The notes: generated by a model not told the origin, from the sequence alone. A stretch of DNA of 64,000 nucleotides from a candidate division Hyd24-12 bacterium UBA6080 (GCA_002436025.1 DIXM01000002.1:245659-309658); one strand, 5' to 3'; positions 14,087-32,667 are shown, numbered from the stretch's first letter. A program made the numbers and translations.

Positions 14087-14089
14087 TAA

Positions 14090-14161
14090 TTGGGGGACAC
14101 AATACTTGATTATCCGAAACGATGCGGGTCAAACTGGATAAGTAAGTTTTGTGTCCCCCAA
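14090..14161 (+). repeat. Palindromic repeat element copy A (72 nt)
   Basis: 13-bp perfect terminal stems TTGGGGGACACAA / TTGTGTCCCCCAA around a 46-nt interior. The conserved 5' motif TTGGGGGACACAATACTTGATTATCCGA recurs at 15049 and, inverted, at 16257. Starts 3 nt after the rpsG stop. Confidence 0.65.
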
Positions 14162-14177
14162 AATCCAAAAACCAAAA

Positions 14178-14564
14178 TCATTCCTCGAACACTCCATCGA
14201 CGAACTGCCCGTGATTCCTCCAGCAGTTCGCGTTCCATCCCCGAAGGCTGAACGTGTCCCTCTCTCTGCCCATGATACGGTATCTGTACTCGATGCCGGT
14301 CCTGGGGCAGACCAGACCTGCATGAACGTATCCTGAGATTGTGTTCAGCTTCTTCCAGCCGTTCCCCGGGGGATACTGATTGTGCTCTGCAAGGTAGAGT
14401 TGAAGCGCGCCCGCTATGGTTCTCAGATTCGACCTGCAGGAAGCAAGCTTTGCGCTTTCCGAAACGTCCCTGAATTTGGGAATGGCGATGGCGGACAGTA
14501 TTCCCAGTATCACCACCACTATCATGAGTTCGATGAGTGTGAAGCCCTTGTTGGAATCCTTCAC
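14178..14564 (-). CDS. Prepilin-type N-terminal cleavage/methylation domain protein (type IV pilin / T2SS pseudopilin-like)
   Basis: N-terminus MKDSNKGFTLIELMIVVVILGILSAIAIP is the class III signal with G|FTLIE. GTG start in a GTGA overlap with the upstream gene's stop. Confidence 0.75.
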   Translation of the reverse strand: MKDSNKGFTLIELMIVVVILGILSAIAIPKFRDVSESAKLASCRSNLRTIAGALQLYLAEHNQYPPGNGWKKLNTISGYVHAGLVCPRTGIEYRYRIMGRERDTFSLRGWNANCWRNHGQFVDGVFEE

Positions 14565-14965
14565 AGCTCACCTGCCTTGAAGGCTTCGATCTCCATGTCG
14601 GAAGTGTAATAGAGTCCGCCCGGGGTTCGAAGCGACCATTCATCGTCGTACTCCAGTTCGAACACGAAACCCGACGGAAGGTCAAGATCGGGTGCCAGGG
14701 GCATGGTATCGGTCAATGCCCGCCAATCCTGAACCCTCATGAAAACCGCAGCGACAGAATCCCTTTCCGCCTGCTCCAAAGGGGGCGGGGAGCCTACAAA
14801 ACCGCTGCCTTCAGGCTGATACAGCAGGACAACGATGATCAGAAGCGCACCCGCCGCGCCAAAGACCAGAATGCCGGAGCCTTTCTTCCGCTTTTCCTTC
14901 GGCGGGGCCTTCTCCTCGTAGACGATGTCCATGTCCAGCTCAAGGGGTTTCTGAGTGTTCGTCAT
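14561..14965 (-). CDS. Hypothetical membrane protein (co-transcribed with pilin)
   Basis: Start chosen at the ATG (MTNTQKP...) preceded by GGAGGAG; the ORF track's GTG at 14992 is upstream of it. One predicted TM segment (ILVFGAAGALLIIVVLLY). Confidence 0.5.
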   Translation of the reverse strand: MTNTQKPLELDMDIVYEEKAPPKEKRKKGSGILVFGAAGALLIIVVLLYQPEGSGFVGSPPPLEQAERDSVAAVFMRVQDWRALTDTMPLAPDLDLPSGFVFELEYDDEWSLRTPGGLYYTSDMEIEAFKAGEL

Positions 14966-15048
14966 GCCGGTCTCCTCCAGTAAGAGATTCACTCATCCCA
15001 ATCCCTGATTATCAAAAGAACTCCCACGGTTGCAAAGGGGTGGGTAAC

Positions 15049-15144
15049 TGGGGGACACAATACTAAATTATCCGATGGGAAAAATCTGAATCTTCAGGGT
15101 AGTTCAATGCAAACCTGCGGTTTTTACAGGTTTGTGTCCCCCCA
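15049..15144 (+). repeat. Palindromic repeat element copy B (96 nt)
   Basis: TGGGGGACACAATACTAAATTATCCGA...TTGTGTCCCCCCA with 12-bp perfect terminal stems. Lies in the divergent region between the minus-strand pilin operon and the plus-strand genes. Confidence 0.65.
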
Positions 15145-15160
15145 TTCCCTTGGAGGCCTT

Positions 15161-15861
15161 TTGAGACACTTCACATTGGCCCTCATCCTTCTTACGAAAT
15201 GGTCAGCTTATGGAGCAGATTCCGCATTATTCCGTTTCATCGGCTTTTCCACCGATGGAGTTTTTTCGCCTGGGAGCAGTACGGCGTACAGGACGGCAGC
15301 GGTTTTCCGTGGAGCACGGTGACCATCCAGTCGACTGCTGACGGATCAGTCATCCATGAGTTCAGCGTCGTCCTGGAAGACGGGTTCAAGGGAGAAGGCG
15401 ACCCCGGGGGGGAGAGTATGCGGCTGGCACACGAGGCTCTCCTCTGCCTGTCCGGCGGAAGCTGGGACAGGGGTTCGCTGCTCGTTCACCATCCCCCCAC
15501 AGACATGACGTTCGGGGGAAGCCAGGTGACCTTCTGCACGACTTACTACTCCCCCTCATACTACATCGGTGACTACACACTCGACCTTGTTACCGTGGAG
15601 ATTCCCGGGACTGAGATGGAGGAGTACTGGGGGTTCCCACCGCTTTCGTTGTCCGTGGTGTTTTCCGATAACATCACAGGTCTCACCCGAACGGTGATGG
15701 ATACATCCGACAGGACCGGCAACCTCCAATGGGTGTTCGGTTACGGCATACAGGACGTCTGGTGCATTGGGGACTCGGTCTTTGCTGCTGCCATCCAGTG
15801 CGTATCCATAGGTTTCGAAGGACCTGACCTGCGGTACCTGATGACGGGCTGGACGATTTGA
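15161..15861 (+). CDS. Hypothetical secreted protein; reading frame interrupted at a T6 tract (15261-15266)
   Basis: TTG start after GGAGG encodes a signal-peptide-like MRHFTLALILLTKWSAYGADSALF... in the frame of ORF 15107..15322. The long body continues in the frame of ORF 15199..15861. One extra T in the T6 run would join them into about 233 aa. Confidence 0.45.
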
Positions 15862-15885
15862 CCGGTCACATCGTGAGGAGGAACG

Positions 15886-16203
15886 ATGTCTTCTGAGAAA
15901 GCCTTCACCTGCAGCCAGTGCGGGGCCCCCGAACTGGAACGGTCGGGGGAGGGAAAGCTGCGATGCCCATATTGCGGCAGCCTCTACAGCTTTTCAGTGC
16001 GGGGTCCGACCGTTGTGATCCGAAAGGGAGCAAACGTCATCATTGGCAAAAAAGCAAAAGTTACGATAAGAGGCGGGGTGGAGATCCACGAAGGCGCCCG
16101 GGTCAAGATTGACGGAGAGGTGACACTTCTGGAAAGGGCGCCCGAAGAGGCCATCAGCGCCGCCAGACTGAGGCTGCGAGCAACGGGCAAAGACGAAACT
16201 TAA
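15886..16203 (+). CDS. Small zinc-ribbon protein with bactofilin-like beta-helical repeat segment
   Basis: GAGGAGG RBS. CSQCG...CPYCG zinc ribbon. Then VVIRKGANVIIGKKAKVTIRGGVEIHEGARVKIDGEVTLL, an alternating hydrophobic/Gly pattern as in bactofilin DUF583. Confidence 0.6.
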   Translation: MSSEKAFTCSQCGAPELERSGEGKLRCPYCGSLYSFSVRGPTVVIRKGANVIIGKKAKVTIRGGVEIHEGARVKIDGEVTLLERAPEEAISAARLRLRATGKDET

Positions 16204-16215
16204 GATATCTAAACT

Positions 16216-16249
16216 GAAGGTTCATTTTTCTTTAAAAAATGAGGCCTTC
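16216..16249. terminator. AT-rich palindromic hairpin between convergent genes
   Basis: GAAGG...CCTTC stem around the near-palindrome CATTTTTCTTTAAAAAATG. A striking AT island in GC-rich DNA. Confidence 0.3.
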
Positions 16250-16256
16250 GGTGCAA

Positions 16257-16285
16257 GATAATTTAGTATGGTGTCCCCCAATTTA
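16257..16285 (-). repeat. Repeat copy C (inverted, left-arm motif only)
   Basis: The reverse complement reads AATTGGGGGACACCATACTAAATTATC, about 24/27 identity to copies A and B. No partner arm. Abuts the stop codon of the MFS gene. Confidence 0.6.
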
Positions 16286-17464
16286 TTCCTTGATCGGCTT
16301 CAGGGTGAAACCAATGATGGCAGCCACGAAGCACAGGGCCGCGGCGGTATAGTAGGCTGCGGTGTAGCCGCCGGTAGAGTCGAGTATCCTTCCCGCCATC
16401 ATGGGGCCGATCTGCCCGCCCACACCCCACGCTGTGAAAAGAACTCCGTAGTTCAACCCCATGTTTTTCGTGCCGTAGAAATCACCGACCGCGGAGGGGT
16501 AGACGGAAAGCATGGCGCCGTAGGCGAAGGTGACGACCATCGCGCCGAAAAGGATGGATGCGAAGCTCCCGAAGCTTGCGAAGAAAAGAAGGACAGTACC
16601 CTGGGCGAGGTAGAGGATCATCATGGTCTTCGCCCGTCCCAGTTTGTCCGAGATGGTTCCCGCAATGGGCCGGCCAAGGGCGTTGCTTATTGCCATGAAG
16701 GCCACCAGCAGAAAGCCGAAGTTCCGGCCGGTCTGCACGCTGGCGATCGTTGAAAGGTGGCCGATGATCATCAGACCGGCCAGCGCCCCCGCGACGAACA
16801 TCACCCAGAGCTGGTAGAACTGCCGTGTGCGTATCATCTGTTTCCAGTCGTAGTCACGTACCGAGACCCTGGCCTGCCGTCCGGCAGCCTGCACCTGCTT
16901 TTCGGGGTTCTTTAGGGTCTGGGCGAGTCCCACCACCACCAGGAAGAAGCCCGCTCCGAGAATCCGGAAGGAGTTGAAGATCGTGTAGTTCTGTATCAGG
17001 TAGTTGGTGAGGGGCGCGATGTAGATGGTTGCCGCGCCGAACCCTCCCACCACCATGCCCGAGATCAGCCCCTTGCGCTCAGGTGGGAACCACTTTATGG
17101 CGACGGGGGTCGTGGCCGAGTAACCAAGACCGATTCCCGACCCCGCCATGATACCGAAGCACAGCACAAGCCCCGGAACGGTCTGGAAGAAACTGGCCAG
17201 AACCATGCCTCCCCCCACCAGTATCCCGGCCAGCGTCACTACGACCCTGGGGCCGTACTTGTCCTGAAGACGGCCACCGAAGATCATCATGACGGCGAAC
17301 ATTGCCACAGCCATCGTGTAGGGCAGCGAAGCCTGGGTGCTGCTCCATCCAAGCGATTCCCGCAGGTTGGCGGCGAAGATGCTCCAGGCGTAGAGAACTC
17401 CGAAGGAAAGGTTGATGCCCATTCCGGCCAGGACGATGGTCCATGCCCTTTTGTTCCTGTTCAT
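16283..17464 (-). CDS. MFS transporter, oxalate/formate antiporter (OFA) family-like
   Basis: 393 aa with 12 predicted TM helices. OFA-like motifs. Confidence 0.8.
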   Translation of the reverse strand: MNRNKRAWTIVLAGMGINLSFGVLYAWSIFAANLRESLGWSSTQASLPYTMAVAMFAVMMIFGGRLQDKYGPRVVVTLAGILVGGGMVLASFFQTVPGLVLCFGIMAGSGIGLGYSATTPVAIKWFPPERKGLISGMVVGGFGAATIYIAPLTNYLIQNYTIFNSFRILGAGFFLVVVGLAQTLKNPEKQVQAAGRQARVSVRDYDWKQMIRTRQFYQLWVMFVAGALAGLMIIGHLSTIASVQTGRNFGFLLVAFMAISNALGRPIAGTISDKLGRAKTMMILYLAQGTVLLFFASFGSFASILFGAMVVTFAYGAMLSVYPSAVGDFYGTKNMGLNYGVLFTAWGVGGQIGPMMAGRILDSTGGYTAAYYTAAALCFVAAIIGFTLKPIKE

Positions 17465-17535
17465 ATGCGGAAGCCCCCCTGTTGAATTTAGCCCGGATTA
17501 TAGCTGGATTGGCTGTTCTTAACAAAACCCGGCTA

Positions 17536-18765
17536 TCAGTGCTTTCCCGCCCGAATGCCTGAAGCTGCCGCCACTGCGGAAGAGAATGCCCACTGGATGT
17601 TGTAACCGCCGGTATCGCCGTCCACATCGAGGACTTCCCCCGCGAAGAAAAGACCCGGGGTGATCCTGGATTCCATGCTCTTCCGGTTGACCTCGTCCCG
17701 GGTCACGCCTCCCGCTGTTGCCATTGCGACATTGAAGCCGCCCTTTTTCGCAACCTTGACGGGAAATGCCGTTACCAGACCGAGTATCTTCATTCGATCG
17801 GTCCTTCCGATCTCTCCTCCCTTGCGGGACGGAACGATACCCGCCTTTTCGAGAACGGTGTCCGCGAGCCGTTCGGGAATGCCAAGGCCTTTCACGATGG
17901 TTCTGACCGCCTTCTTTCCCCCGGCCTGAAGGGCGGCGATAAGGCTGATTTCGACTTCTCCCGCAGGTTTGTCCGTAAGCGCCACCGAAAGCCTGTCACC
18001 ATCCCTGATGTGCCTGCTGAGGTCCAGTATTCCGGGTCCCGAAAGCCCAGCTCCGGTGAAGAGAACGTCGCCCCTGGCTGAAATCGTCCTCCCGTCGGCC
18101 TTATGAAGGGAGATCGCCGGGTTTTTGACTGATATGCCGGCAAGCCCTGCGGGAAAAGGTTCCTCCGCCGTTATGTGTGTGAGGGAGGGGGTGATGTCGG
18201 TTACGGTATGGCCCAGCGAAACCGCCAGATCGAACCCGTCACCTGCTGAGCCGGTGTCGGGGTAGGAGCACCCGCCCGTGGCTATGACCAGGTAATCGGA
18301 TGAGAACACCGCTGCACCAGTGGTGACGGTGAAACCGCCCTCCTCCCTTGAAACCGCTTCGACCTGTGAGTCGAACACCATCCTTACGCCCTTCCCGGCA
18401 CACCGCCCAAGAAGAAGCGCGAGGATGTCGGATGCCCTCATTCCCGCAGGGAACAGCTTGCCGTCCTCCCGGGCGAAGGTCTTTACGCCGCCGTTCTCGA
18501 GAAAGGCGCACAGGTCTTTGTTGGTGAAGGCCAGAAGGGCTGGTTTGACGAAATTGGCTGCTCCACCGTAGTGCCCGGTGAATTCACTGATCGGACCGGT
18601 CCGGCTGAAATTGCACTGCCCCGACCCCGAAAGCAGCAGCTTTCTGCCGGGACTTCCGTTCTTCTCAAGCAGGAGCACATCATCCCTGTTCGTGCATGCG
18701 TTCAGGGCACAGAACAGTCCTGCGGGACCTGCCCCGATGACAATGGTCTTGTATCTGGAGAGCAT
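17536..18765 (-). CDS. HI0933/BaiN-like NAD(P)/FAD-dependent oxidoreductase (aminoacetone oxidase family flavoprotein)
   Basis: Start set at the internal ATG giving MLSRYKTIVIGAGPAGLF (Rossmann GxGxxG). LLLEKNGSPGRKLLLSGSGQCNFS is typical of the HI0933 family. Confidence 0.8.
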   Translation of the reverse strand: MLSRYKTIVIGAGPAGLFCALNACTNRDDVLLLEKNGSPGRKLLLSGSGQCNFSRTGPISEFTGHYGGAANFVKPALLAFTNKDLCAFLENGGVKTFAREDGKLFPAGMRASDILALLLGRCAGKGVRMVFDSQVEAVSREEGGFTVTTGAAVFSSDYLVIATGGCSYPDTGSAGDGFDLAVSLGHTVTDITPSLTHITAEEPFPAGLAGISVKNPAISLHKADGRTISARGDVLFTGAGLSGPGILDLSRHIRDGDRLSVALTDKPAGEVEISLIAALQAGGKKAVRTIVKGLGIPERLADTVLEKAGIVPSRKGGEIGRTDRMKILGLVTAFPVKVAKKGGFNVAMATAGGVTRDEVNRKSMESRITPGLFFAGEVLDVDGDTGGYNIQWAFSSAVAAASGIRAGKH

Positions 18766-18772
18766 GAGCGGC

Positions 18773-19174
18773 CTACAGCCTCCATACCTCCTCGCCGGTC
18801 TGGACCAGGCCCATCCCGTTTTCCTCCAGGGCTGAGCGCATCCATTCCAGTGACTTGTCGAAGTTATCAAGCAGGACGGTGCTTCCGTTATCGGAGCTGA
18901 CCTGCAGCAACCTGCTGTTCCGGGCGTAGGTTCCCCTGGAAACGGTTACTGTGCCGAAGGGAAGGCTGACAGGTTTTCCCCTTATCAGAAGCTTTAGAAG
19001 GATACCCAACTGGGTGTAGAGCAGCGCCATCTTTCCCAGGTCGTGAAAGACGAACCTTCTGTTGGTCAGAACGCAACGGCAGTCAACCGGGAACTTTATC
19101 TTCCCGCCCTGCAGCGTGTAACGGCGTCTGTCGGCGAAAACCTGCTCATCGGGGTCGGGCGTGAACTTCGGCAT
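18773..19174 (-). CDS. Hypothetical protein (possible bacterial PH-like fold)
   Basis: 133 aa, no signal peptide. Co-directional and tightly spaced between the OM-barrel gene and the oxidoreductase gene. Confidence 0.4.
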   Translation of the reverse strand: MPKFTPDPDEQVFADRRRYTLQGGKIKFPVDCRCVLTNRRFVFHDLGKMALLYTQLGILLKLLIRGKPVSLPFGTVTVSRGTYARNSRLLQVSSDNGSTVLLDNFDKSLEWMRSALEENGMGLVQTGEEVWRL

Positions 19175-19189
19175 GAAACTCCTTTTTTC

Positions 19190-19921
19190 TCAGAACATCC
19201 TTCTGATGGTAAAGCCCAGGGCGAGGTCGTTCGTGGCCGCCCCGTTCAACTGCCCCCGCGGGCCGATGCCGGTACTGTTCCCAAGGATGACGACGAACTG
19301 GTGACCCCATGTGGTGCGCCTGACCCCGAAGCAGAACGAGTCTTCGGGAAGGATCGATTGATCTTCGTCATCCCGGTCGATGACCGGGAAGTATTCTCCG
19401 ATAAGGGCCGTATTCTCCCCAAGACCAAGGGAAAGACCGAACCCGGGGCCGTGCCTTTCGGTCCTGCCGTCATAGGCATAGTTCACCGTGGGGATGATCC
19501 GCCCGTTCGCGAAGGGGGCCGAGAACGCGCCAAGCAGCGTCAGCCCGCCCTCACGGTCCTGGTTGGCCGCAGGTTTCACCGAGGAATACCCCATGGAAAA
19601 GGCAGCCTCGAAGCTGTCGACAAAGGTGCTCCAGTACCCGCCCAGCGTGTATTCCTTCCCGGAGCGCACGTGCCCGGCCCTGATCTCGAGACCGTTCACC
19701 GGGAACCATCCCAGTTCTGCACCCACGTTGGCACCGATGTCCATTCCGAAGAATGTCTCGATCGGTTCGTCCTTAAGTGCTGCCCCGTAGAACCTGTGGT
19801 TCAGCCTGAGTTCCAGGCTTCCCTCACCGGTTGCCGGCGCGGGGGTCTCGATGTTGAGCATCCCAGGGCCGTAGGCGGCCAAAGGACAGGCGATCGCCAG
19901 AAGCATCGCGGCAACTCTCAT
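19190..19921 (-). CDS. Putative outer-membrane beta-barrel protein
   Basis: Signal peptide MRVAAMLLAIACPLAAYG. Alternating amphipathic strands rich in aromatic and Gly residues. C-terminal ...GFTIRRMF ending in Phe. Confidence 0.55.
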   Translation of the reverse strand: MRVAAMLLAIACPLAAYGPGMLNIETPAPATGEGSLELRLNHRFYGAALKDEPIETFFGMDIGANVGAELGWFPVNGLEIRAGHVRSGKEYTLGGYWSTFVDSFEAAFSMGYSSVKPAANQDREGGLTLLGAFSAPFANGRIIPTVNYAYDGRTERHGPGFGLSLGLGENTALIGEYFPVIDRDDEDQSILPEDSFCFGVRRTTWGHQFVVILGNSTGIGPRGQLNGAATNDLALGFTIRRMF

Positions 19922-19930
19922 GAGAACCTC

Positions 19931-20461
19931 CTAAAGGAGTTCGAGTGAAACTGCACGAACGAACTGGTGCGCGCTTGTGAAATCATCTCCCCCACTTGGA
20001 CCGTAAGCCAGCAGGATCGCATAGGTTTCCCCCTGGGTGAGAACGGCATCGTACAGGTCGCCGGAAGACATGGGGATGGAGAAGTCGATCTCGGTCTTGT
20101 TTCCGGTCTCGCCCGCCTCTATGAGCGTGACGTTGCTGTTGCCTCCCAATACAATGTCGGCCTCGTGGGTCGTGACGCCCGTACCGAAATCGTCACGTAT
20201 GAACCCCGTTCCGTCTTCGACGTATCCGATGATGAAATTCGCATCCTTCATCATCACGGAGGGGTCGAAACCAACCGCAACCCAGCCCGTCGTTGGCGCG
20301 GAGAGTTTCACGTGAAGGGTCGCCCCGTCGTTCTCCACCCGCCACTGAAACACGACATCGTCAGTGGTGTAGTCGTTCCATCCCTCGGTCCCGGAAGGGC
20401 CCGTGGTGTCGCCGCAGCTTCCCATAAGAAGCAGGGCTGTAATGACAAAAGCTTTTTTCAT
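19931..20461 (-). CDS. DOMON-domain lipoprotein (paralog 1)
   Basis: MKKAFVITALLLMGSCG lipobox. TGWVAVGFDPSVMM.DANFIIGYV...IRDDFG...H..D..LGG core shared with the divergent paralog. Confidence 0.7.
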   Translation of the reverse strand: MKKAFVITALLLMGSCGDTTGPSGTEGWNDYTTDDVVFQWRVENDGATLHVKLSAPTTGWVAVGFDPSVMMKDANFIIGYVEDGTGFIRDDFGTGVTTHEADIVLGGNSNVTLIEAGETGNKTEIDFSIPMSSGDLYDAVLTQGETYAILLAYGPSGGDDFTSAHQFVRAVSLELL

Positions 20462-20545
20462 TCCGCCTCCGCCCTTTTCCATCGTTTTCCTTACTTGACA
20501 GTTGTATTATTATACTTGCTGGTGAAAAAGAAAGGAAGGCTGACA

Positions 20546-21094
20546 ATGGGTAAGCTGTTGATCATCATGGCCGTCCTCACAGGCACCACATTCGCATGGC
20601 AGGAGATCGAGGTTTCGGGATTCCTCCTCAGATGGGAAACCCGGGCGGGAGACAACCTTGCTGTGGAGCTCACCGGTCCCACGACGGGCTGGGTTGCGGT
20701 GGGTTTCGACCCCTCCGTGATGATGCTGGACGCCAACATCATCATCGGCTACGTTTCGGGCGGCAACACCTTCATCAGGGACGACTTTGGATGGCAGACC
20801 ACATCCCACAGGGCCGACACCCTCCTGGGGGGAACCGAAGACTTTATCATCGACGGCGGCTCCGAGTCCGGGGGGGAAACCCAGATCAGGTTCACCATCC
20901 CGCTTGACTCCGGTGACCAGTACGACAAGCCCCTTGTTCCCGGCAGCTCCTACCCGATAATACTTGCCAGGGGACCCAACGGCGCAGACGACTTCTCGAC
21001 CCAGCACCAGTTCATAACCACTGCCACCATCGACATCCTTGCCTTCTCCCTCCAGGGGTCCACCTGGGGTAGGGCGAAGATGGGTCTTGACTGA
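20546..21094 (+). CDS. DOMON-domain protein (paralog 2, signal peptide)
   Basis: AAAGGAAGG RBS. MGKLLIIMAVLTGTTFA signal. The same TGWVAVGFDPSVMMLDANIIIGYV...IRDDFG core as paralog 1. Confidence 0.7.
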   Translation: MGKLLIIMAVLTGTTFAWQEIEVSGFLLRWETRAGDNLAVELTGPTTGWVAVGFDPSVMMLDANIIIGYVSGGNTFIRDDFGWQTTSHRADTLLGGTEDFIIDGGSESGGETQIRFTIPLDSGDQYDKPLVPGSSYPIILARGPNGADDFSTQHQFITTATIDILAFSLQGSTWGRAKMGLD

Positions 21095-23789: not shown

Positions 23790-23791
23790 AC

Positions 23792-23820: not shown

Positions 23821-23861
23821 GCCTGCCTGTAACCCCCACAGCCAGGAGACAGGTTCCGCCC

Positions 23862-25916
23862 ATGAGCAGCCCCAGTGCACTTCGCAACATAGGCATCTTC
23901 GCCCACATCGATGCGGGCAAGACCACGGTCACGGAGAGGATACTTTTCTACACCGGCCGCACTCATCGAATGGGAGACGTTGACCACGGCACCACGGTGA
24001 TGGACTGGATGCCGCAGGAGCGCGAAAGGGGCATAACCATCGTTTCCGCAGCCACCACGTGCACCTGGAAGAACACCACCATAAACATCATAGACACACC
24101 CGGTCACGTTGACTTCACGGCCGAGGTCGAGCGTTCCCTCAGGGTCCTCGACGGCGGAGTGGCTGTATTCTGTGCGGTGGGAGGCGTCGAACCCCAGACC
24201 GAAACTGTCTGGCGCCAGGCTCTGAAGTACGGGGTCCCGACCATTGCTTTCGTGAACAAGATGGACCGCCAGGGAGCAGATTTCCCCAGGGTGCTCCAGA
24301 TGATGCGGGACATCCTTGGGGCTGTGCCCCTGCCCGTTTTCCTTCCCATCGGAAGCGGACAGGCCTTCAGGGGCATCGTGGATGTGATACGCAGCCGTGC
24401 GCTCTTCTTCGATCCAGAATCACTTGGCGAGACCATACGTGAAGAGCCGATACCCGAAGAGATGGCCGATTCCGCGGCCCGGGCCCTCGAGGCCGTTCAG
24501 GAGGCCGTGGCTGACCTTTGCGAAGATGCCATGGAACGTTACTGCACGGGGAATCTCGATCCGTCCCTCATCATCCCGCTCATCAGGAGGGGAACGCTTG
24601 AGAAACGGTTCGTTCCGGTCCTCTGCGGCGCCGCCCTCAGGAACGTGGGCGTTCAGCGTCTTCTCGACGCCATAGTCGACTGGCTTCCCGCCCCTGAAGA
24701 GCTTCCTCCCGTCACAGGCATCAAGTCCGACGGCACCGAAGCGGAAAGGTCCAGAGGCACTGATTCGCCCTTCACCGCCCTGGTGTTCAAGATACAGACC
24801 GACTCCCATCTGGGCAGGCTCGCCTACATGAGGGTGTATTCGGGAAGCGCGAAGGATGGCCAGGCCGTTCTGAACAACCGTACGGGCCGGAAGGAGAGGA
24901 TGATGCGCCTGGTCCGCATGCATGCGGACAAGCGTGACCACCTCGACTTCGTACAGGCCGGAGACATAGCGGCGGCTGGAATGAAGGACGCTGCAACGGG
25001 CGACACCCTGACGGCGCCCGAACACCCGATTACCCTTGAATCCATCGATTTCGCCGAACCGGTCATGCAGATGGCCATCGAGCCCGCGGGCGCCCGTGAT
25101 GACAAGGCTCTGGAGGACGCCCTTCAGGAGATGACCAGTGAGGACCCCAGCCTGAGGGTGGGAGTAGACCGCGATACCGGCCAGAACATCATCATGGGCA
25201 TGGGAGAGCTGCATCTGGAGATCGTGGTGGACAGACTAAAGCGGGAGAAGAATCTTCAGGTTCACACCGGGAACCCCCAGGTATCCTACCGCGAGGGCGT
25301 TCTGCGCCCGGGCAGGGGCGAGGGCAGCTTCGAGAGGCTCATCGCGGGCCGTGGCAATTTCGGCCATGCCGTGGTGCAGGTCGAACCCACTGGGGGGGGG
25401 ATCGAGATAGCAAGCACTGTTTCAGGGCTTCCCTTTTCCTTCACCGAGGCCGCCAAAAGCGGGATCAGGGGCAGTGTGGGCGCCGGAGCACTTGCGGGTT
25501 TTCCAGTGGATGGCATTCGTATAACGCTGATCCAGGCAAGGCTTCACGAGACCGATTCGACGGAACTTGGCTATGCCTCGGCCGCTGCAGCCGCCTTCCG
25601 GGAAGCACTGAAGGATGGCTCACCGGTGATCCGCGAGCCCATAATGATGCTGGATGTGATATCCCCGGTAGACTACCTCGGCGAAGTCCTGGGCGACATC
25701 AGCTCCCGCCGTGGACAGGTCGAGGCCATCCACCAGCGCGGGGAAGCGCGCAACATCCACGCCAGGGTTCCCCTGGCCGAGCTGTTCGGGTATTCCAGCA
25801 ACATAAGGAGCCTCACCCAGGGCCGCGCAGGGTTCTCCATGCAGTTTTTGAACTACGAGAACACCCCGCCCAACGTTCAACGCGACCTTCTTCAGAAAAT
25901 GGGCATCATCACCTGA
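23862..25916 (+). CDS. fusA: Elongation factor G
   Basis: 684 aa. [14 protein letters not shown] and DTPGHVDF G-motifs. Domains II-V recognisable. Separated from rpsG and from rpsJ by accessory DNA. Confidence 0.9.
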
Positions 25917-25950
25917 ACCGCAGCCTGAAAAGCTCAGGCGGTCGCCGTTC

Positions 25951-25988
25951 CCGGGATGCTTCCGGGAAGGCAAGTGCAATGCCTTTTT
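25951..25988 (+). terminator. Candidate intrinsic terminator after fusA
   Basis: CCCGG-GATGCTT-CCGGG, then GGCA-AGTGCAA-TGCC followed by TTTTT. Confidence 0.35.
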
Positions 25989-26231
25989 AAGCAGGAAACC
26001 ACCCCGGGGCTGCATTCCGTGATATGGACCCCCGACGCTTCCGTGCCTTCGGGGTGCTATCTGATAGGACTTGAGTCAGCCGGTGGAACGGTCACAAGAC
26101 GATGCGTGTTTATGAGATAGTGTTATCCGGCTGGCTTGGGAACCACAGAAGTGTCGCACCAAAACCGGCGAATCTGTAGCATCTGTCACCGAAGTTGATG
26201 CTCACAGCACTGGTTTCTGTCCTGATGCTCC

Positions 26232-26260
26232 TTGACAATTGAATCCCGCCGTATGTAAAT
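26232..26260 (+). promoter_or_regulatory. Candidate promoter for secreted-protein gene pair
   Basis: TTGACA - 17 nt - GTAAAT, about 50 nt upstream of the 26312 ATG. Confidence 0.25.
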
Positions 26261-26311
26261 TGACATGGCAGGTTTATTCTCTCAGAGCATTACCCTGTAG
26301 GGAGTCTTGTC

Positions 26312-29227
26312 ATGTCGTATCTTCCTCCCAGATTTGGTGTATTCACTCTTAGCGTTCTAATCCTGCTCACTCAGTCCCTCATCGCAGCGGAACCCGGGGA
26401 GAACACAATTCCCATCATAGGCATGCGGGCTTCCAACAACGCAGACTTTTCAGGGATAGGCATTCGTCTTCTCTGCGAGCTGTCTTGGAAGTGTTTCGAC
26501 GGAGTGGAGGTGGAGGGACTTGTGGTGGATGGTTCCGCGGGAAACCCGGATTGGCAAGACAATCGTGATTTCATAGAACTCTGCGGTGATGCGGGCATGC
26601 TTCTGGTCCTTGCTCCCTGGGAGATAAGCCAGTTCCATAACTTCTGGAACGTAAACACCGCGTACTGGTTCCGCTGGGAGGACTATTCACTCAATTCCGG
26701 GAAGTGTTTCGGGCAGCTTTCCGAAACCCTTGGAGCACCGATTGACTCCATGACGGCTGCGCAGATGGCAGATACCACTGAAATCAGATCAGTTGCATAC
26801 GCGAACAACCAATTGGCAATCACCTTGAACCCTGCGACTTATCCCGCCCTTTGGTTCTACAACGTATATGACGAGGCGCCTGCGCGTCAGCGTGCCAGAA
26901 TGATAGAAGGTTCCACGACATGGGACGATTGGATCCCCAACCTCTACACCCAGGACACACTGAGCAATGGTGAACCAACCCTGACGGAGATAGAACCCGC
27001 GGGCATCTACTCCTGGCAGAAGTGGTTTGCGGAAAACCACGTGACAACTCCCATCCCCCTTACCATCAACTTCTCCCTGCTGCATACCATTCAAGCCAAT
27101 GAGTACACCGGGATAACCTGGGATCTCAACTACGGCACCATGCACCAGCAGGCCAATTCTGTCAGAGCGTTGTGCGAAGCCCTGTACCAGGGGCCTCCCG
27201 GGACGGGAACGCCCGTTGACCCGGTGAGCAACTCCCCTGAGTTCATCTGTTTCGACTACTACCCGTTTCGGTATGTTCACATTGATTCCCTGGGAGCAAC
27301 CCTCTGCGACGACGACTGGCTCTTCCTTGTTGACCATTGCGAACAGGGGATGGACTCGACGGTGTTCGCGGCAAGGGAGAGCGATGTCCCGGTGTTCTTC
27401 TACCCTCAGGCCTTCGGGGTCTCCGGAGGTCCGCTGCTGCGTGATTCCGCAGGAGATCTTGAGTACCTTTCCTACACGTACCGCACTCCTGCTCCTCAGG
27501 AGTTCCGCATGCTCTGCAATCTGGCCCTGCTGCACCAGGCAAAGGGGCTTTTTCCCTACTCCCTGGCCGGCTACATCTCTGACCCCAATGCCCCTGAAGA
27601 TCAGAACAACTTTATATGCAACTCGCTTCTCGACCTTCACGGCATACCGTTCGATGCTCCGTACGAAGACTGGGTGTACACCGGAAGGTGGCCGGATACT
27701 GGTGACTGGGAAGGCGGGTACGAGTACGCCGACCCCGGGGAACTTCCCCCCTTCAGCGCGGGCTTCGACCCTCTCTACGAGGTGTCGGCAGCACCGGTTC
27801 CAGTGCAGGATGACCCGAAGAACACCGAGAGGTTTCTGACATGGCTCTTCGAGCCCTACTCGAGGCTTTACGACAGCGTTCAGGTTCCCCTGGCCGAGGC
27901 TGCAGTGATTGCACCCGAGATGTCGGATCTCTGGTGGTGGGAGGGTTCGTGGGACGCTGCAAGTATCTCTGTGGACGACCCTGAGATCTACGACCACTAC
28001 GTTCCACCTGTGATAAAGGTGTTCCAGGGGCCGGACAGCAGCCACGTGTATCTTTACTACGTGAACCGCTACCTGAGGAACGAAGAGACGGATTACACCG
28101 TCAGGCTCACTGTCTCTCAGAGCCCCGGGTACGTATCCTTAACTGTACTTGACCACAGCAGGCGCTTTTTGATACCGGCTCCTTCAGGGGGCGGGGGCAA
28201 CGATGTTTACGTCGCCTTCGACGACACGCTGGAAGCGGGTGAGGGCAGGCTCGTTGAGTTCGTGGACACAAATGCTCTTCCCGCGGACATCAGGGTGACG
28301 TCACCCGACGTTTATGTGTACAGGCAGGGCGCCGTGAACAGAAGCGACCGGTTGTGCTGCACCGCCGGTGAAACCATCACCTTCGGAGCCGTGTACTACA
28401 ACATGGGGACTGCGGCAACCGGAGATATCAGCGTGGTCTTCGAAAAGGTTGGTACACCGTACATACTGGGCACCGACACGATACGTTTCGGGGGGCTTTC
28501 AGGGTACTACAACCCCGACAGCGCCTCCGCGAGCATTCAGTGGGAGACCGATGTGAACGACATTGGTGTTCACAGGATCGGGATAAGCGCGGGAGCCGTT
28601 TCCGGCGAGAACACATCCGACAACAGTGTTACGGTCACGGTTCTTGTTGAGCCTTTGGACTACGCCACCGAAGTTCCGGGGAACGCGTGGGACATGACCG
28701 AGGCTGTGAGCAATCCGCCGGACTGGTTCACCAATGACATTGTCTCGATTGCGGCCGGCTGGATTGATTCATGCTGGACCGATTCCGTCAGCGGAATGTT
28801 CGAGGGCGCAATTGAGTCCCGCACTTACGGTGCCTGGACAGGGTTCAAGGGGGATATCAGCCTTAACACCGGCGGTGGATCAATCAACGCAGACCGGTAC
28901 ACATTGCTGAGCCTTGCCGGTGTCTCCCTGAACCCCAATGTATCTACAACGGAGTATGGCTGCGGCATGTTCCTGTTATGGAAGGATTCAACGGAGACCG
29001 AGCGTCAGTTGGAGCTTCACGGGAGCAACGGCTTTGATCGGTGGCTTGGGAACGGCAGGGAGATGTGGCGCGAGTTCGGACCTCTTGACCTCTCCGATGT
29101 TCCTTGGTGGGGCGGCGAGATAAGCGATCTGAGGATAAGGTTCCAGATGGATCCGCCCGGAAGTCTCCCGGGTAGCTCCCTTGGCATCAGGATCGGCTGG
29201 GTCAGGCTGGAAGAAGGTGCTTTGTGA
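26312..29227 (+). CDS. Large secreted hypothetical protein (971 aa) with CARDB-like Ig-fold segment
   Basis: N-terminal signal peptide. No catalytic motif recognised. A segment around residues 640-760 resembles CARDB/Ig-like repeats. Confidence 0.65.
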   Translation: MSYLPPRFGVFTLSVLILLTQSLIAAEPGENTIPIIGMRASNNADFSGIGIRLLCELSWKCFDGVEVEGLVVDGSAGNPDWQDNRDFIELCGDAGMLLVLAPWEISQFHNFWNVNTAYWFRWEDYSLNSGKCFGQLSETLGAPIDSMTAAQMADTTEIRSVAYANNQLAITLNPATYPALWFYNVYDEAPARQRARMIEGSTTWDDWIPNLYTQDTLSNGEPTLTEIEPAGIYSWQKWFAENHVTTPIPLTINFSLLHTIQANEYTGITWDLNYGTMHQQANSVRALCEALYQGPPGTGTPVDPVSNSPEFICFDYYPFRYVHIDSLGATLCDDDWLFLVDHCEQGMDSTVFAARESDVPVFFYPQAFGVSGGPLLRDSAGDLEYLSYTYRTPAPQEFRMLCNLALLHQAKGLFPYSLAGYISDPNAPEDQNNFICNSLLDLHGIPFDAPYEDWVYTGRWPDTGDWEGGYEYADPGELPPFSAGFDPLYEVSAAPVPVQDDPKNTERFLTWLFEPYSRLYDSVQVPLAEAAVIAPEMSDLWWWEGSWDAASISVDDPEIYDHYVPPVIKVFQGPDSSHVYLYYVNRYLRNEETDYTVRLTVSQSPGYVSLTVLDHSRRFLIPAPSGGGGNDVYVAFDDTLEAGEGRLVEFVDTNALPADIRVTSPDVYVYRQGAVNRSDRLCCTAGETITFGAVYYNMGTAATGDISVVFEKVGTPYILGTDTIRFGGLSGYYNPDSASASIQWETDVNDIGVHRIGISAGAVSGENTSDNSVTVTVLVEPLDYATEVPGNAWDMTEAVSNPPDWFTNDIVSIAAGWIDSCWTDSVSGMFEGAIESRTYGAWTGFKGDISLNTGGGSINADRYTLLSLAGVSLNPNVSTTEYGCGMFLLWKDSTETERQLELHGSNGFDRWLGNGREMWREFGPLDLSDVPWWGGEISDLRIRFQMDPPGSLPGSSLGIRIGWVRLEEGAL

Positions 29228-31062
29228 AAGCTCTGATTCTGCTGCCCGTTGTCTTGACAACCTCTTTGGCGGGCTTAAGCGGGCAGGACGACTGGTCCGA
29301 CGGGCCTGGAGTTCCCGGGCCGGTGAACTTCTTCTTTCAATCCTTCGACAGCCACCAGAACATGGGATACGAGGACACGCCGGGGGAGTTGTTCCTTCAT
29401 CTTCGGGGCGAGAAGCATCAGGTCACGAACTACCTTGAGTACTCGGTTCCCGGGATGGTGGCAGACATGAACGGCGACGGTCACCTTGACGTGGTGTGCG
29501 GGTCCAACGGATACAGCAAGAGGAAGGTTTACTGGTTCGAGAACGACGGTTCAGGGGGTGGCTGGGAGCGCCACGATGTGAGTGGAACTGGCGAAGTGAC
29601 CTATCCATGGTCCGTTTGCGCCGCGGATGTCGACGGAGATGGCGATATGGACGTTATCTGCGGGGATAACGACAACAAGATTTTGCTCTGGATCAACACT
29701 GACGGATCGGGGCTGACCTGGGAAACCATCATTCTTGTTGACAACCTTTTCTATAGCCCAACGTTTGTCACGAATTCCGACATTGATGGCGACAGTTATC
29801 CTGATGTTGTTACACTAACAGGTGGTGGTTCCAACGAGTTGATCCTATGGTTTGAAAACCCCATACCCGATCGGCCCACAATCGATGGATGGACACAACA
29901 TCTGGTAGGACCGAAAGCAAACTGCAATCAGGTCTTTCCAGCCGACATCAACGGCGATGGTCGGATGGACGTGGTCAGCGCTGCTGGAAGTTCCAACAAG
30001 CAGGTGTCGTGGTGGGAGAACGAGAACGGTACGGGCGACAACTGGACTGAGCGCACCATTGTCAACAACATCAATCACGCAAAGACTGTCCATGCTTCAG
30101 ACATGGACGGTGACGGCGACATGGATGTGATTGCTGCAGGGTCTTATGACTTGTACTGGTTTGAGAACGACGACGGACTGGGAACTTCTTGGACAGAGCA
30201 TCAACTTCCTGATCCTTTTGTTCTGTGCAAGGCCGCTGCAGGAGTTGACATTTTTGGAAACGGCAGTCCAGTGATTCTCTCTGCTCATGGTTCCAGTGGC
30301 ACGCCTATTCGCTTCGTCCTCTGGGAGCGGATGGACGAGGGGGGTCTGACCTGGAGAAGGCACATACTGGAGAAGAGTTACCTGTACCATGGTCTCTCCG
30401 TTGGGGATATCGATGGGGACGGTACACTTGATGTGGTTGCCTTCGAGGATGGCAGCCGGGTTTTCTGGTTCAGCAAGTTTGGCTACCCATCCGAAGGAAC
30501 ACTCACCTCATCCATTCTGGACGTGAACAACTATCCCCACTGGGATGAGATACAGTGGCAGGACAGCGTTCCTGCGGGTTCTTCCGTACGGTTTCGTGTG
30601 CGTAGTTCCAACGATCCCGGGGACATGGGTGAGTGGTCTGGCTACATTGAGGAGTCCGGGAGCCTTGAGGGCTTTGCGGACAGCACCCACCGTTATTTCC
30701 AGTACCGTGTTCACATGGAGCCATCGGGCCATCTGGTGACACCCACGCTCTATCAGGTGCTGATCTACTGGCAGTGGCTTGGGGTGGAGGGGGCTGAAGA
30801 AGAAACATGCCTTCACCCGGTGACCCCCAACCCATGTACAGGCCCTGTGGAGATACGGTTCAGTCTTGCGGAGCCGGGTCCCATTGCGCTTCAGGTGTTC
30901 GACCTGTACGGCCGTTTGGTCGCCTTGCCGGTGGACGGCGAGGTGTCGGGCGGTGAACACTCGGTCCAGCTTGCTTCCCTGCATCCGGGAGCCTACTTCG
31001 TCAGGATGACCACGGGAGAAGAAGTGCTGCGGGAGCGCTTTGTTCTGGTGGGTGATCAGTAA
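29224..31062 (+). CDS. FG-GAP/VCBS-repeat beta-propeller protein with T9SS-type C-terminal sorting domain
   Basis: GTGA overlap with the upstream gene. Signal peptide. Repeated DxDGDGxxDV calcium-binding FG-GAP motifs (DMNGDGHLDV, DVDGDGDMDV, DINGDGRMDV, DMDGDGDMDV, DIDGDGTLDV). The C-terminal ~80 aa (NPCTGPVEIRFSLAEPGPIALQVFDLYGRLV...GAYFVRM) resembles the Por/T9SS CTD. Confidence 0.8.
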   Translation: MKALILLPVVLTTSLAGLSGQDDWSDGPGVPGPVNFFFQSFDSHQNMGYEDTPGELFLHLRGEKHQVTNYLEYSVPGMVADMNGDGHLDVVCGSNGYSKRKVYWFENDGSGGGWERHDVSGTGEVTYPWSVCAADVDGDGDMDVICGDNDNKILLWINTDGSGLTWETIILVDNLFYSPTFVTNSDIDGDSYPDVVTLTGGGSNELILWFENPIPDRPTIDGWTQHLVGPKANCNQVFPADINGDGRMDVVSAAGSSNKQVSWWENENGTGDNWTERTIVNNINHAKTVHASDMDGDGDMDVIAAGSYDLYWFENDDGLGTSWTEHQLPDPFVLCKAAAGVDIFGNGSPVILSAHGSSGTPIRFVLWERMDEGGLTWRRHILEKSYLYHGLSVGDIDGDGTLDVVAFEDGSRVFWFSKFGYPSEGTLTSSILDVNNYPHWDEIQWQDSVPAGSSVRFRVRSSNDPGDMGEWSGYIEESGSLEGFADSTHRYFQYRVHMEPSGHLVTPTLYQVLIYWQWLGVEGAEEETCLHPVTPNPCTGPVEIRFSLAEPGPIALQVFDLYGRLVALPVDGEVSGGEHSVQLASLHPGAYFVRMTTGEEVLRERFVLVGDQ

Positions 31063-31089
31063 ACACGTTGCAGGAGAGACCGTTTCCCG

Positions 31090-32253
31090 TCAGTTGCACA
31101 GGCCCCTCACGATAACAGCTCGTACCGTTTCCAGAAGCAGTTTCGAGCCCAAAGACAGAAGCCCGTCGGGGAACTCGTAATCGGGGTGGTGGAGAGAAGG
31201 GGTTTCCTCACCGGCCCCAAGGCCGAGAAGGACCCCCGGGATGGCGCCTGTGAAGTGGCCGAAGTCCTCCGACCATGGGAAGGGCTCTTCCCTGAAGGAG
31301 ACGTTCATGCCAAGCCCCCTGGCTGTCTCTGCGACCAGGTCAACCAGACTGCTGTCGTTCTGCACGGGTGGGAACTCTTCGCTTCCTTCCACCGAAACCC
31401 CCAGCCCGTAAGCCCCCGCGATCCCCTCGGCGAGCCAGGTGCACTCTCTGAACAGGTCTTCGAGAACCCCCTTTTCTGCGGCCCTGAGGGTTGCCATTAA
31501 AACCGCCTCGCCCGGGGAAGTCCCGAACGTTTCAGCACCCAGCGCCGCATGGACGACAGTGACCATCGCAGGTTGATAAAGACCGGTCCGGTTCTGTGGA
31601 ACGGCGTTAAGGGCCTGGATAAGCTGGGCGACCGCCATTGCAGGGCTTCTGCCCTTGTGGGGTTCCCCCGCGTGGGAACGTTCACCGGTGATATTGACGG
31701 TTATCCCCACTGATGCGGAGGCGAAGACACCATGCCTGAGGATGACCTCGCCCGACTTGAACCCGGGAAGGTTGTGAAGCGCCACTGCGAAGTCGGGCAT
31801 TACGGACTTGAAACCTTCGTCCTTCAGTGCCGCGGAGGCTCCTGCGCCGGTCTCTTCCGCGGGCTGGAAAAGCAGGAGGACCGAGCCCCTTTCAAGCGGG
31901 GCTTCCGAAAGTTCTGCCGCCACGCCGGCAAGCATCGCCATATGACCATCGTGCCCGCACCCGTGATACGCTCCGGAACCATCCGGCATGGGAAGGCCGT
32001 CGAGCTCGCACCTAACCATTACCCGGGGTCCGGGAAGAGCCCCCTTGAATAGAGCGGCCACGCCGTGCCCGGCGATCCCCCTCAGAAGCCTGGTTGGGCA
32101 TGTGGCGGCAAGAAAGTCTGCCACGATCACTGCCGTTGCGGCCTCCCTGCCGGAAACCTCGGCCCTTGCGTGAAGGGCCCTTCGGAGATCGAGCGGGTTC
32201 AGACCTTCCCCTTTCCAACGAGTTTGGCGAAGTGTTCGAAGGAGCGGTCCCAC
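31090..32253 (-). CDS. M20D-family amidohydrolase (peptidase M20)
   Basis: LRRALHARAEVSGRE...GIAGHGVAALFKGALPGPRVMVRCELDGLP...QPAEE is typical of M20D. Start shown as GTG 32253, which overlaps the upstream small ORF by 55 nt. The alternative CTG 32202 overlaps that ORF's TGA and gives MNPLDLRRALHA, a very typical family N-terminus. Confidence 0.75.
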   Translation of the reverse strand: MGPLLRTLRQTRWKGEGLNPLDLRRALHARAEVSGREAATAVIVADFLAATCPTRLLRGIAGHGVAALFKGALPGPRVMVRCELDGLPMPDGSGAYHGCGHDGHMAMLAGVAAELSEAPLERGSVLLLFQPAEETGAGASAALKDEGFKSVMPDFAVALHNLPGFKSGEVILRHGVFASASVGITVNITGERSHAGEPHKGRSPAMAVAQLIQALNAVPQNRTGLYQPAMVTVVHAALGAETFGTSPGEAVLMATLRAAEKGVLEDLFRECTWLAEGIAGAYGLGVSVEGSEEFPPVQNDSSLVDLVAETARGLGMNVSFREEPFPWSEDFGHFTGAIPGVLLGLGAGEETPSLHHPDYEFPDGLLSLGSKLLLETVRAVIVRGLCN

Positions 32254-32402
32254 GTTTTCTCTTCTTCTTTTGGGAAAAAGCAGCCCGGAATCTCCCTGTT
32301 CTTCAGGTGGCTTGCCACACATTCGCAGCAAACACCCTTTCGGGAGCACGGTTCGTAGCTGCAGTTGCACCGCTTGAGATTTTCAGGCTTTCTGCACTCC
32401 AT
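32199..32402 (-). CDS. Small cysteine-rich protein (67 aa, 7 Cys; CxCx5Cx5CCxC...C)
   Basis: Strong SD: GGAAGGAGTG, 5 nt before the ATG. MECRKPENLKRCNCSYEPCSRKGVCCECVASHLKNREIPGCFF. Divergent from the S10 operon. Confidence 0.6.
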   Translation of the reverse strand: MECRKPENLKRCNCSYEPCSRKGVCCECVASHLKNREIPGCFFPKEEEKTWDRSFEHFAKLVGKGKV

Positions 32403-32465
32403 GATTCACTCCTTCCGTCCGGTTTGCATAAGGGCCGGGCGCCCCCGGTGTCAATGCCCCACGGC

Positions 32466-32494
32466 TTGACAGACCGGGTTTTCTGTGGTAGGCT
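32466..32494 (+). promoter_or_regulatory. Candidate S10-operon promoter
   Basis: TTGACA - 17 nt - TAGGCT, about 175 nt upstream of rpsJ. Confidence 0.25.
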
Positions 32495-32667
32495 TGCACT
32501 TCCCCGAAAGGCCAGGGGTGGTTGCGGTTCCTTTGGAATTCAACCATATTTGGCGCCCCGGAGGCTCCGATGAGCCAATGGGTGAAAATGAAATTGGCAG
32601 CGCGGGATTCTCCCGAATGGGTGTATTGCGCGTTTATTTCTGGTTTGTAAAGAACCGAGGAGATGGG

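Follow-up and report, generated by a model that had tools for sequence, protein, structure and literature searches.

Probable old fission of the str operon, followed by gene turnover at the rpsG–fusA and fusA–rpsJ junctions, in a clade of Candidatus Fermentibacterota

Known separations of the str and S10 operons and the locus under study

The rpoBC–str–S10–spc string is among the most conserved bacterial gene orders, and the forces that maintain it remain under debate. In Proteobacteria, separation of this supercluster begins with small multigene insertions of genes unrelated to mobility, sometimes followed by larger rearrangement, an example of such an insertion being bfd–bfr–hopD between str and S10 of Salmonella (Brandis et al., 2019, PMC6735719). 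According to Margus, Remm and Tenson (2011, PMC3150367), adjacency to rpsG is a hallmark of the EFG I subfamily, and EFG I encoded outside the str operon is exceptional, being described for two single-EFG genomes out of 303-305 in a first dataset. Here, we consider a stretch of 64,000 nt from the candidate division Hyd24-12 bacterium UBA6080 (GCA_002436025.1, DIXM01000002.1:245659-309658; hereinafter, the window), in which the string rpsL–rpsG–fusA–rpsJ is interrupted twice, by 9,775 nt between rpsG, ending at 14086, and fusA (gap 1) and by 6,751 nt between fusA and rpsJ, starting at 32668 (gap 2). A preliminary description of the window had interpreted both interruptions as accessory DNA; its coordinates, gene counts and gene descriptions are all correct according to Pfam matches and gene calls, and both linkages are indeed broken by non-ribosomal genes, 14 in gap 1 and four in gap 2.

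The same description took the linkage of rpsG and fusA for the usual bacterial state, and the background set bears this out. It comprised 80 genomes of other phyla from a scan with EF-G, with 48-52% identity, and in 77 of these, among the matches listed, rpsG lies no more than ~310 nt upstream of fusA, while of the 36 listed loci whose sequence continues for at least 1.5 kb downstream, 33 have rpsJ after fusA or tuf. We consider it highly probable that the interruptions in the window go back to an old operon fission, after which genes were gained and lost in the gaps. This is based on the distribution of the break in the phylum, on the variable contents of the gaps, and on promoter-like motifs conserved at the new 5′ ends.

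Distribution of the break within Fermentibacterota

The window belongs to Candidatus (Ca.) Fermentibacterota. Where their source is named, the EF-G homologues with 60-99% identity are all from Fermentibacterota, the EF-G of the window being 70% identical to that of Ca. Sabulitectum, 64-65% to that of Ca. Aegiribacteria, and 62% to that of Ca. Fermentibacter daniensis, and the best matches beyond the phylum drop to ~53%. According to the NCBI taxonomy, Fermentibacterota sits in the FCB group, which fits the presence of a type IX secretion system (T9SS) sorting domain in one of the gap proteins, as well as a tuf that precedes secE rather than following fusA.

Twelve Fermentibacterota loci were compared, eight of them broken (the window included) and four intact; percentages given with locus numbers below are EF-G identities to the window. 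The intact loci, namely, L086 from Aegiribacteria MLS_C (65%), L087 (63%), L088 from Fermentibacter daniensis (62%) and L093 (63%), read rpoB–rpoC–rpsL–rpsG–fusA–rpsJ–rplC, with an rpsG–fusA spacer of ~90 nt and a fusA–rpsJ spacer of 30-80 nt. In the clade with an EF-G of 683-689 amino acids (aa) and at least 68% identity, all eight loci are broken wherever the contig reaches a junction. The closest relative, L092 (94%), resembles the window without the genes for DUF2259 and a Zn-ribbon protein, and has an alanine racemase gene beside that for the M20 peptidase. L083 (90%) has the block of ten genes seen upstream of fusA in the window, and its gap 2 consists of genes for a PQQ-repeat protein and M20. 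In L089 (82%), the proximal block is kept, Na/Pi-PhoU is found further upstream, no rpsG is seen within 10 kb, and gap 2 holds alr, M20 and DUF6485, whereas L084 (80%) has an aminotransferase, two unknown genes, a sulfatase and another unknown gene between rpsG and fusA, and M20 and DUF6485 between fusA and rpsJ. In L090 (71%), a sole nitroreductase gene separates rpsG from fusA, and V4R, NiFe hydrogenase and further genes follow fusA for more than 10 kb; in L085 from Sabulitectum (70%), gap 1 contains five genes, including those for a nitroreductase and a PQQ/T9SS protein, and fusA is followed by V4R, hypFCDE and hydrogenase genes, again for more than 10 kb. Finally, in L091 (68%), BON/LysM and DUF937 genes precede fusA, and V4R and hydrogenase genes separate it from rpsJ.

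In the window, L092 and L084, the genes rpsG, fusA and rpsJ are all on the plus strand and in the ancestral-type order, and L083, L089, L090, L085 and L091 are consistent with this where partly visible; all other junctions of the supercluster are contiguous in 12 out of 12 loci. The retention of both order and orientation suggests that the gaps were opened by small insertions comprising a few genes, and not by inversion or translocation. Pairwise identities of EF-G, S7 and S12 place the window, L092, L084, L090 and L085 in one cluster, and S7 has 155 aa in the broken loci tested vs. 157 aa in the intact genomes; L083, L089 and L091 were assigned to the broken clade by EF-G identity alone. Comparisons aimed at a faster evolution of EF-G relative to S7 in the broken clade gave inconsistent results, one pair having 96% identity in S7 and 80% in EF-G, and L090 and L085 resembling the intact pairs. 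The contiguous string is thus the ancestral state of the phylum, and the break is derived and appears to be ancestral to a clade at the level of a family or broader. Since it is common to all clade members down to ~68% EF-G identity, it is likely old, not a recent insertion in the genome of the window. In the preliminary description, sharing of the arrangement by the whole lineage was named as a refuting outcome, which would make it ancestral rather than inserted; this is what we observe for the break in all sampled members of the clade, but not for the contents of the gaps, which vary.

Two explanations would remove the break or fusA from this history. One is a chimera, that is, misjoined contigs at 14.09, 23.86, 25.92 or 32.67 kb, which could be suspected given the metagenomic source, the palindromic repeats at 14.09-16.28 kb, and the end of the L083 contig near such repeats. 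However, identical EF-G is found on seven contigs, the longest of which, an ENA MEGAHIT contig (799,009 nt) and a JGI contig (798,777 nt, metagenome 3300002498 from a methanogenic culture degrading toluene), were produced by different assemblers, though possibly from one sample, and are 100% identical to the window at 13862-35916 (22,055 nt), covering all four junctions. Moreover, L092, coming from another metagenome, has the same gene order as the window, and it and the other-sample relatives L084, L085 and L089 span the same junctions. The chimeric joins that the preliminary description had warned of are therefore extremely improbable. The other explanation is that the EF-G of the window is a paralogue or xenologue (EFG II, spdEFG or a laterally acquired protein) encoded in an accessory region, with the str-linked fusA lost. 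Its length, 684 aa against 687-697 aa, and its identity of only ~50-53% to EF-G from other phyla might be taken in this way, but its nearest relatives (60-99%) are Fermentibacterota where named, including products of the str-linked fusA of Aegiribacteria and Fermentibacter, its identities track those of S7 and S12, and the genes of its listed matches in other phyla adjoin rpsG in the 77 of 80 cases mentioned above, which is the EFG I hallmark (Margus et al., 2011, PMC3150367). We regard this possibility as very improbable, and the fusA of the window is most likely a vertically inherited orthologue.

Gene turnover and palindromic elements in the gaps

The eight broken loci have at least four distinct gene sets in gap 1 and at least seven in gap 2 (the features of the window are listed in Table 1). 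The window and L092 are collinear throughout, their identity being 84.8% across the stretch with fusA and the two gaps and 90-92% in the ribosomal parts, and are distinguished by two indels: the segment 14976-16259 of the window (DUF2259 and Zn-ribbon; 1.28 kb) corresponds to 113 nt in L092, and in place of the alr gene of L092 (1.3 kb), the window has 47 nt. As L083 (90%) and L099 (78% nucleotide identity) have the DUF2259/Zn-ribbon pair as well, its absence from L092 is more likely due to loss. The ten-gene block upstream of fusA is present in L092, L083 and L089 (EF-G identity at least 82%), the 133-aa protein being uncalled in L089, and is not present in L084. Of the loci sampled, only the window and L092 have the genes for the 971-aa and FG-GAP proteins, whereas M20 adjoins rpsJ in L092, L083, L089 and L084, with DUF6485 called in all these except L083.

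Past gene loss is also visible in the window itself. The segment immediately downstream of fusA, 25959-26117, is a relic of a deleted gene: it is 79% identical at the amino acid level to the C-terminal residues 512-564 of a PQQ protein of 564 aa from L083 (E = 2e-28), and the intact gene in L083 is situated between fusA and M20, in the position of this segment in the window. A near-identical sequence is located directly 3′ of fusA in L092.

Hence, the gaps have stable parts, namely, M20/DUF6485 beside rpsJ and the radical SAM and GGACT genes beside fusA, and the changes concentrate beside rpsG in gap 1 and beside the 3′ end of fusA in gap 2, on the distal side of each candidate promoter. The tetranucleotide composition was compared with that of the 64-kb window, a reference rich in ribosomal genes, relative to which the recently variable regions, 14-16 kb and 26-31 kb, are outliers with r = 0.69-0.75 (mean 0.86, standard deviation 0.05); the cargo stretch of palindromic element 2 (see below) has r = 0.74 and the stretch with the 971-aa and FG-GAP genes, 0.69-0.75. 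The composition is native at 17-24 kb (r = 0.85-0.92) and at 31-33 kb. A third outlier, with r = 0.72-0.75 and GC content ~0.55, is found at 51000-54000, outside both gaps. The idea of an insertion hotspot, put forward in the preliminary description, therefore holds in the sense of a long-lived site of turnover with variable contents, but not in the sense of recent accessory DNA, most of gap 1 and the M20/DUF6485 pair being native in composition and collinear with relatives.

Table 1. Features of the window from the predicted str promoter to rpsJ.
Feature	Position	Strand	Description
str promoter candidate	13160-13188	+	TTGACA-17-TAAACT; −10 overlaps rpoC stop codon
rpsL	13242-13613	+	Pfam S12, E = 1e-41
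rpsG	13619-14086	+	Pfam S7, E = 3.8e-63
Repeat-bounded stretch of gap 1	14087-16283		Four genes: N_methyl pilin-like, 134-aa, DUF2259, Zn-ribbon
Element 1	14088-14163		Starts 2 nt past rpsG stop; 26-nt arms AATTGGGGGACACAATACTTGATTATCC, 20-nt loop
Pilin-like N_methyl protein	14178-14564	−	Pfam N_methyl, 2.2e-10; present in L092
134-aa protein	14561-14965	−	Gene call; present in L092 with N_methyl partner
Element 2 with cargo	15046-16283		Encloses DUF2259 and Zn-ribbon
Element 2, left repeat	15046-15073		
Element 2, inner right repeat	15120-15144		Degenerate
Element 2, right repeat	16256-16283		
DUF2259	15199-15861	+	Within element 2 of gap 1
Zn-ribbon protein	15886-16203	+	Within element 2 of gap 1
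Ten-gene block of gap 1	16283-23789	both	Pfam and gene calls; − strand: MFS, HI0933-like flavoprotein, 133-aa protein, DUF5777, DOMON; + strand: DOMON, FMN reductase, 231-aa protein, radical SAM, GGACT
fusA promoter candidate	23792-23820	+	TTGACA, 16-17 nt spacer, TAAGAAT
fusA	23862-25916	+	EF-G, 684 aa, all five EF-G domains (Pfam)
Gene relic	25959-26117	+	Last 53 codons, T9SS-type C-terminal end, PQQ-repeat protein
Promoter candidate before 971-aa gene	26232-26261	+	
971-aa protein, gap 2	26312-29227	+	
FG-GAP protein, gap 2	29224-31062	+	With T9SS sorting domain
M20 peptidase, gap 2	31090 to ~32130 or 32322	−	Pfam; divergent from rpsJ
DUF6485, gap 2	32199-32402	−	67 aa; Pfam; divergent from rpsJ
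S10 promoter candidate	32466-32494	+	TTGACA-17-TAGGCT
rpsJ	32668-32973	+	Pfam S10 domain, inside open reading frame 32485-32973; heads contiguous S10–spc cluster

The genes rpsL and rpsG are the two-gene remnant of the str operon. They are preceded by tuf (11-1171), tRNA-Trp, open reading frames placed, by position alone, as secE–nusG–rplKAJL–rpoB, and rpoC. The latter (8380-13185) encodes 1,601 aa, and complete rpoC calls in six Fermentibacterota relatives encode 1,590-1,601 aa; a paper on lineage-specific insertions in RNA polymerase reportedly mentions Fermentibacteria. Within the ten-gene block, two DOMON genes (19931-20482 on the minus strand and 20546-21094 on the plus strand) are arranged head to head, and the pair is kept in L092, L083 and L089; an inverted repeat of 135 nt with 76% complementarity (20184-20318 and 20656-20790) points to an inverted pair of paralogues. 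No integrase or transposase families were found among the Pfam matches of the genes from both gaps, nor in the gene tables for the gaps of the seven broken relatives. No tRNA gene lies in or beside either gap, the sole tRNA gene of the window being at 1354-1429, the repeat search of the window produced no direct repeats bracketing gap 1 or gap 2, and an Rfam scan of the entire window at the gathering threshold returned tRNA-Trp alone. Thus, the gaps lack the hallmarks of a genomic island, that is, an integrase or recombinase and border tRNA or att repeats.

Miniature inverted-repeat transposable elements (MITEs) and mobile insertion cassettes have terminal inverted repeats, lack a transposase, and sometimes carry passenger genes. 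The beginning of gap 1 contains two palindromic elements, whose arms of 26-28 nt, with the consensus AATTGGGGGACACAATACTTAATTAT, are 88-93% complementary, the value for the outer arms of element 2 being 93%. In L092, near-perfect copies occupy the same two sites (1412-1487 and 2290-2422), the second one being a cargo-free element of 135 nt whose core differs. The loops of element 1 in the window (14116-14135, aaacgatgcgggtcaaac) and in L092 (1440-1459, gtctgacccgcatcgttt) are reverse complements of each other over 18-20 nt, due either to a flip between the inverted arms or to insertion in the opposite orientation. In the genome of the window, for which the window data were considered, repeat copies are seen locally at 14.09-16.28 kb. 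To find copies elsewhere, metagenomes were scanned with a 15-mer of the repeat; among the matches listed, most are single chance matches, and paired copies are present on contigs L111 (two, at 9533-9695 and 12051-12213), L109, L144, L146, L161 and L202, with different cores and beside ordinary genes, e.g., those for CorA, DUF5916 and DUF3160. On L111 and L154, which were examined for this, no transposase was found beside the repeat copies. The flanks of the elements in the window read AT and TA at 14086-87 and 16284-85, with no unambiguous target-site duplication. We found no such elements in gap 2, nor in the gaps of relatives other than L092. These palindromic repeats look like MITE-type elements, one of which carries passengers; given that they are confined to the 2.2 kb proximal to rpsG, they do not explain the gaps as a whole.

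These data allow us to weigh two further explanations of the break. If recent foreign accessory DNA, i.e., a genomic island, had been inserted into the super-operon in the genome of the window, one could account for the atypical tetranucleotides at 14-16 kb and 26-31 kb, for the repeats bounding 14.09-16.28 kb, and for the genes of the 971-aa and FG-GAP proteins seen only here and in the 94% relative. This is decidedly unlikely, however, as the break extends down to ~68% EF-G identity, most of gap 1 as well as M20/DUF6485 is native in composition and collinear with relatives, the DUF2259/Zn-ribbon pair is found also in L083 and L099, and the scans of the gaps revealed neither integrase or transposase nor a flanking tRNA; for the break as a whole, this explanation is largely refuted. 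We also find it unlikely, if somewhat less so, that the hotspot is driven by active shuttling of cassettes, with transposase-less MITE-like elements having terminal inverted repeats of 27 nt delivering the genes. One element abuts the stop codon of rpsG, another holds two genes where the 94% relative has an empty element of 135 nt, and these repeats, around other cores, are found beside ordinary genes on unrelated metagenome contigs, all of which could be expected from such shuttling. On the other hand, the elements do not extend beyond the 2.2 kb of gap 1 next to rpsG, being absent from gap 2 and from the gaps of other relatives, clear target-site duplications are not seen at their flanks, no transposase was found near the copies on L111 and L154, and the cargo seems to be older than the divergence of the window and L092, loss in the latter being more parsimonious. 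Element-driven shuttling limited to the 14-16 kb part is possible.

Predicted transcription units

The preliminary description assigned promoter candidates of their own to fusA and the S10 operon, at 23792 and 32466; both are present and conserved across relatives, while remaining predictions. TTGACA-N16/17-TAAnnT precedes the fusA ATG by ~70 nt in eight out of eight broken loci and is present in none of the four intact rpsG–fusA spacers, and it is kept in L084, L090, L085 and L091 despite a different upstream gene. Such conservation provides good comparative support for a dedicated fusA promoter, predicted from the motif and dating from about the time of the split. The S10 promoter candidate recurs unchanged in L092, L083 and L089 and with little change in L084. 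In contrast, the str promoter candidate at the 3′ end of rpoC, which the preliminary description had mentioned alongside these two, is unrelated to the break, since TTGAC(A/G)-N17-TA(A/G)A(C/G)T occurs at the same place in nine out of nine Fermentibacterota loci covering the end of rpoC, both broken and intact. In the 64 kb, TTGACA-N16-18-TAnnnT occurs three times vs. 0.21 expected, just upstream of rpsL, the gene for the 971-aa protein, and rpsJ; promoters in a general scan are not enriched overall (nine vs. 5.9). Downstream of the −10 candidates of the broken clade there is often TTGC or TGC, e.g., at 13183-13191, 23814-23823 and 32489-32497 of the window and in relatives (TAAACTTGC, TAGGCTTGC, TAAGGTTGC), which suggests an extended downstream promoter element of this lineage.

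In Escherichia coli, the leader of the S10 operon is the target of L4-mediated attenuation. In the window, the S10 promoter candidate is followed by a leader of ~170 nt (32495-32667), which is conserved in five loci, all from the window's sub-clade, and, according to RNAalifold, ends in a GC-rich hairpin (32600-32633) and a U-rich run just before the Shine–Dalgarno sequence, with compensatory changes in eight of the 48 predicted pairs. A search of 32380-32700 against Rfam at E ≤ 1 gave no match. The intact relatives, with only 30-80 nt before rpsJ, have no room for such a leader, and it may be a candidate ribosomal protein attenuator that arose after the split.

At the other new boundary, the 3′ end of rpsG, L085 and L090 have a canonical GC hairpin and U run downstream, while in the window and L092 the terminator place is taken by the 76-nt palindrome (element 1), which in the window is predicted to fold into a hairpin with −37.9 kcal/mol (z = −6.8) and has no U tail on either strand. 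The terminator scan of the window yielded 10 sites vs. 18.2 in shuffled sequences, none of them at the 3′ ends of rpsG or fusA.

Taking all this into account, the following scenario of fission and turnover seems probable. The ancestor of Fermentibacterota would have had the unbroken string rpoBC–rpsL–rpsG–fusA–rpsJ–rplC…, and the junctions rpsG|fusA and fusA|rpsJ would have been opened on the branch leading to Ca. Sabulitectum and the organism of the window. The three pieces would then have turned into separate transcription units: rpsL–rpsG, transcribed from the old promoter at the rpoC stop codon to a hairpin end, formed by the MITE-like palindrome in the window and by a canonical terminator in the Sabulitectum-type loci; fusA with its own TTGACA-type promoter; and S10 with its own promoter, to which the sub-clade of the window would have added the leader with an attenuator-like hairpin. 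With co-transcription dispensable, the DNA between terminator and promoter could have served as a low-cost landing zone, whose contents were afterwards gained, lost and replaced lineage by lineage. The break, its phylogenetic distribution, the variable contents, the relic, the indels and the conserved promoter-like motifs can be read directly from the sequences, whereas the mechanism of insertion, the selective neutrality of the gaps, and the activity of the promoters and terminators are inferred.

Several observations weigh against this scenario. The partner gene is beyond 10 kb in L089 (rpsG) and in L085 and L090 (rpsJ), and larger rearrangements are possible there. Only 12 Fermentibacterota loci were compared, and the branch on which the break is placed follows from pairwise identities, not from a tree. 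The sequences flanking the fusA promoter differ between sub-clades, and a single ancestral origin, as opposed to two convergent ones, is not proven. The −35 box of the str promoter candidate lies within the coding sequence of rpoC, and its conservation could reflect that of the protein. More generally, the promoters and terminators are deduced from motifs and conservation only, and a palindrome hairpin lacking a U tail may allow read-through from rpsG into gap 1. As for a stronger interpretation, in which the clade has rewired the control of its translation genes, the rpsJ leader being a new ribosomal protein attenuator and mobile cassettes making the junctions an element-driven hotspot, we consider it unlikely.

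Comparison with known systems

The clade can be regarded as a natural experiment in which a split inside an operon has long been tolerated and intact sister lineages are at hand for comparison. It offers sequence-level candidates for compensating changes, namely, the fusA promoter and the S10 promoter with its leader, and a visible record of what accumulates after co-transcription has been given up. In practical terms, fusA is not recognisable by gene order when these Fermentibacterota are annotated, and the clade is useful as a comparative case.

The S10 leader of this sub-clade resembles that of E. coli in being a long 5′ leader before rpsJ with a GC-rich hairpin and a subsequent U-rich run, but has no sequence or Rfam similarity to it, is confined to the window's sub-clade, and is at most a putative target of L4. 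The palindromic elements share with MITEs and insertion cassettes the terminal inverted repeats of 26-28 nt, the form of short intergenic palindromes, one copy with two passengers, and the occurrence of copies with different cores on other contigs; in contrast to these systems, neither a target-site duplication nor a cognate transposase was found here at the sites and contigs considered, and the mobility is putative.

As in the exceptional genomes of Margus et al. (2011, PMC3150367), where EFG I is encoded away from the str operon, a canonical-type EF-G gene has been parted from rpsG; however, rpsG and rpsJ here still flank fusA, at a distance of only 5-10 kb and in the same orientation. The closest parallel is the pattern described in Proteobacteria (Brandis et al., 2019, PMC6735719), with which the locus shares a contiguous ancestor, insertions of a few non-mobility genes, retention of order and orientation, larger separations following in some lineages, and the presumed need of each separated piece for its own promoter. 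It differs in that one of the breaks is inside the str operon (rpsG|fusA) and not between operons, in that the phylum is a different and uncultured one, and in that the contents of the gaps turn over repeatedly within a single clade. The locus thus adds another example to a known evolutionary pattern, clear but not unprecedented, and points to no new mechanism or kind of system.

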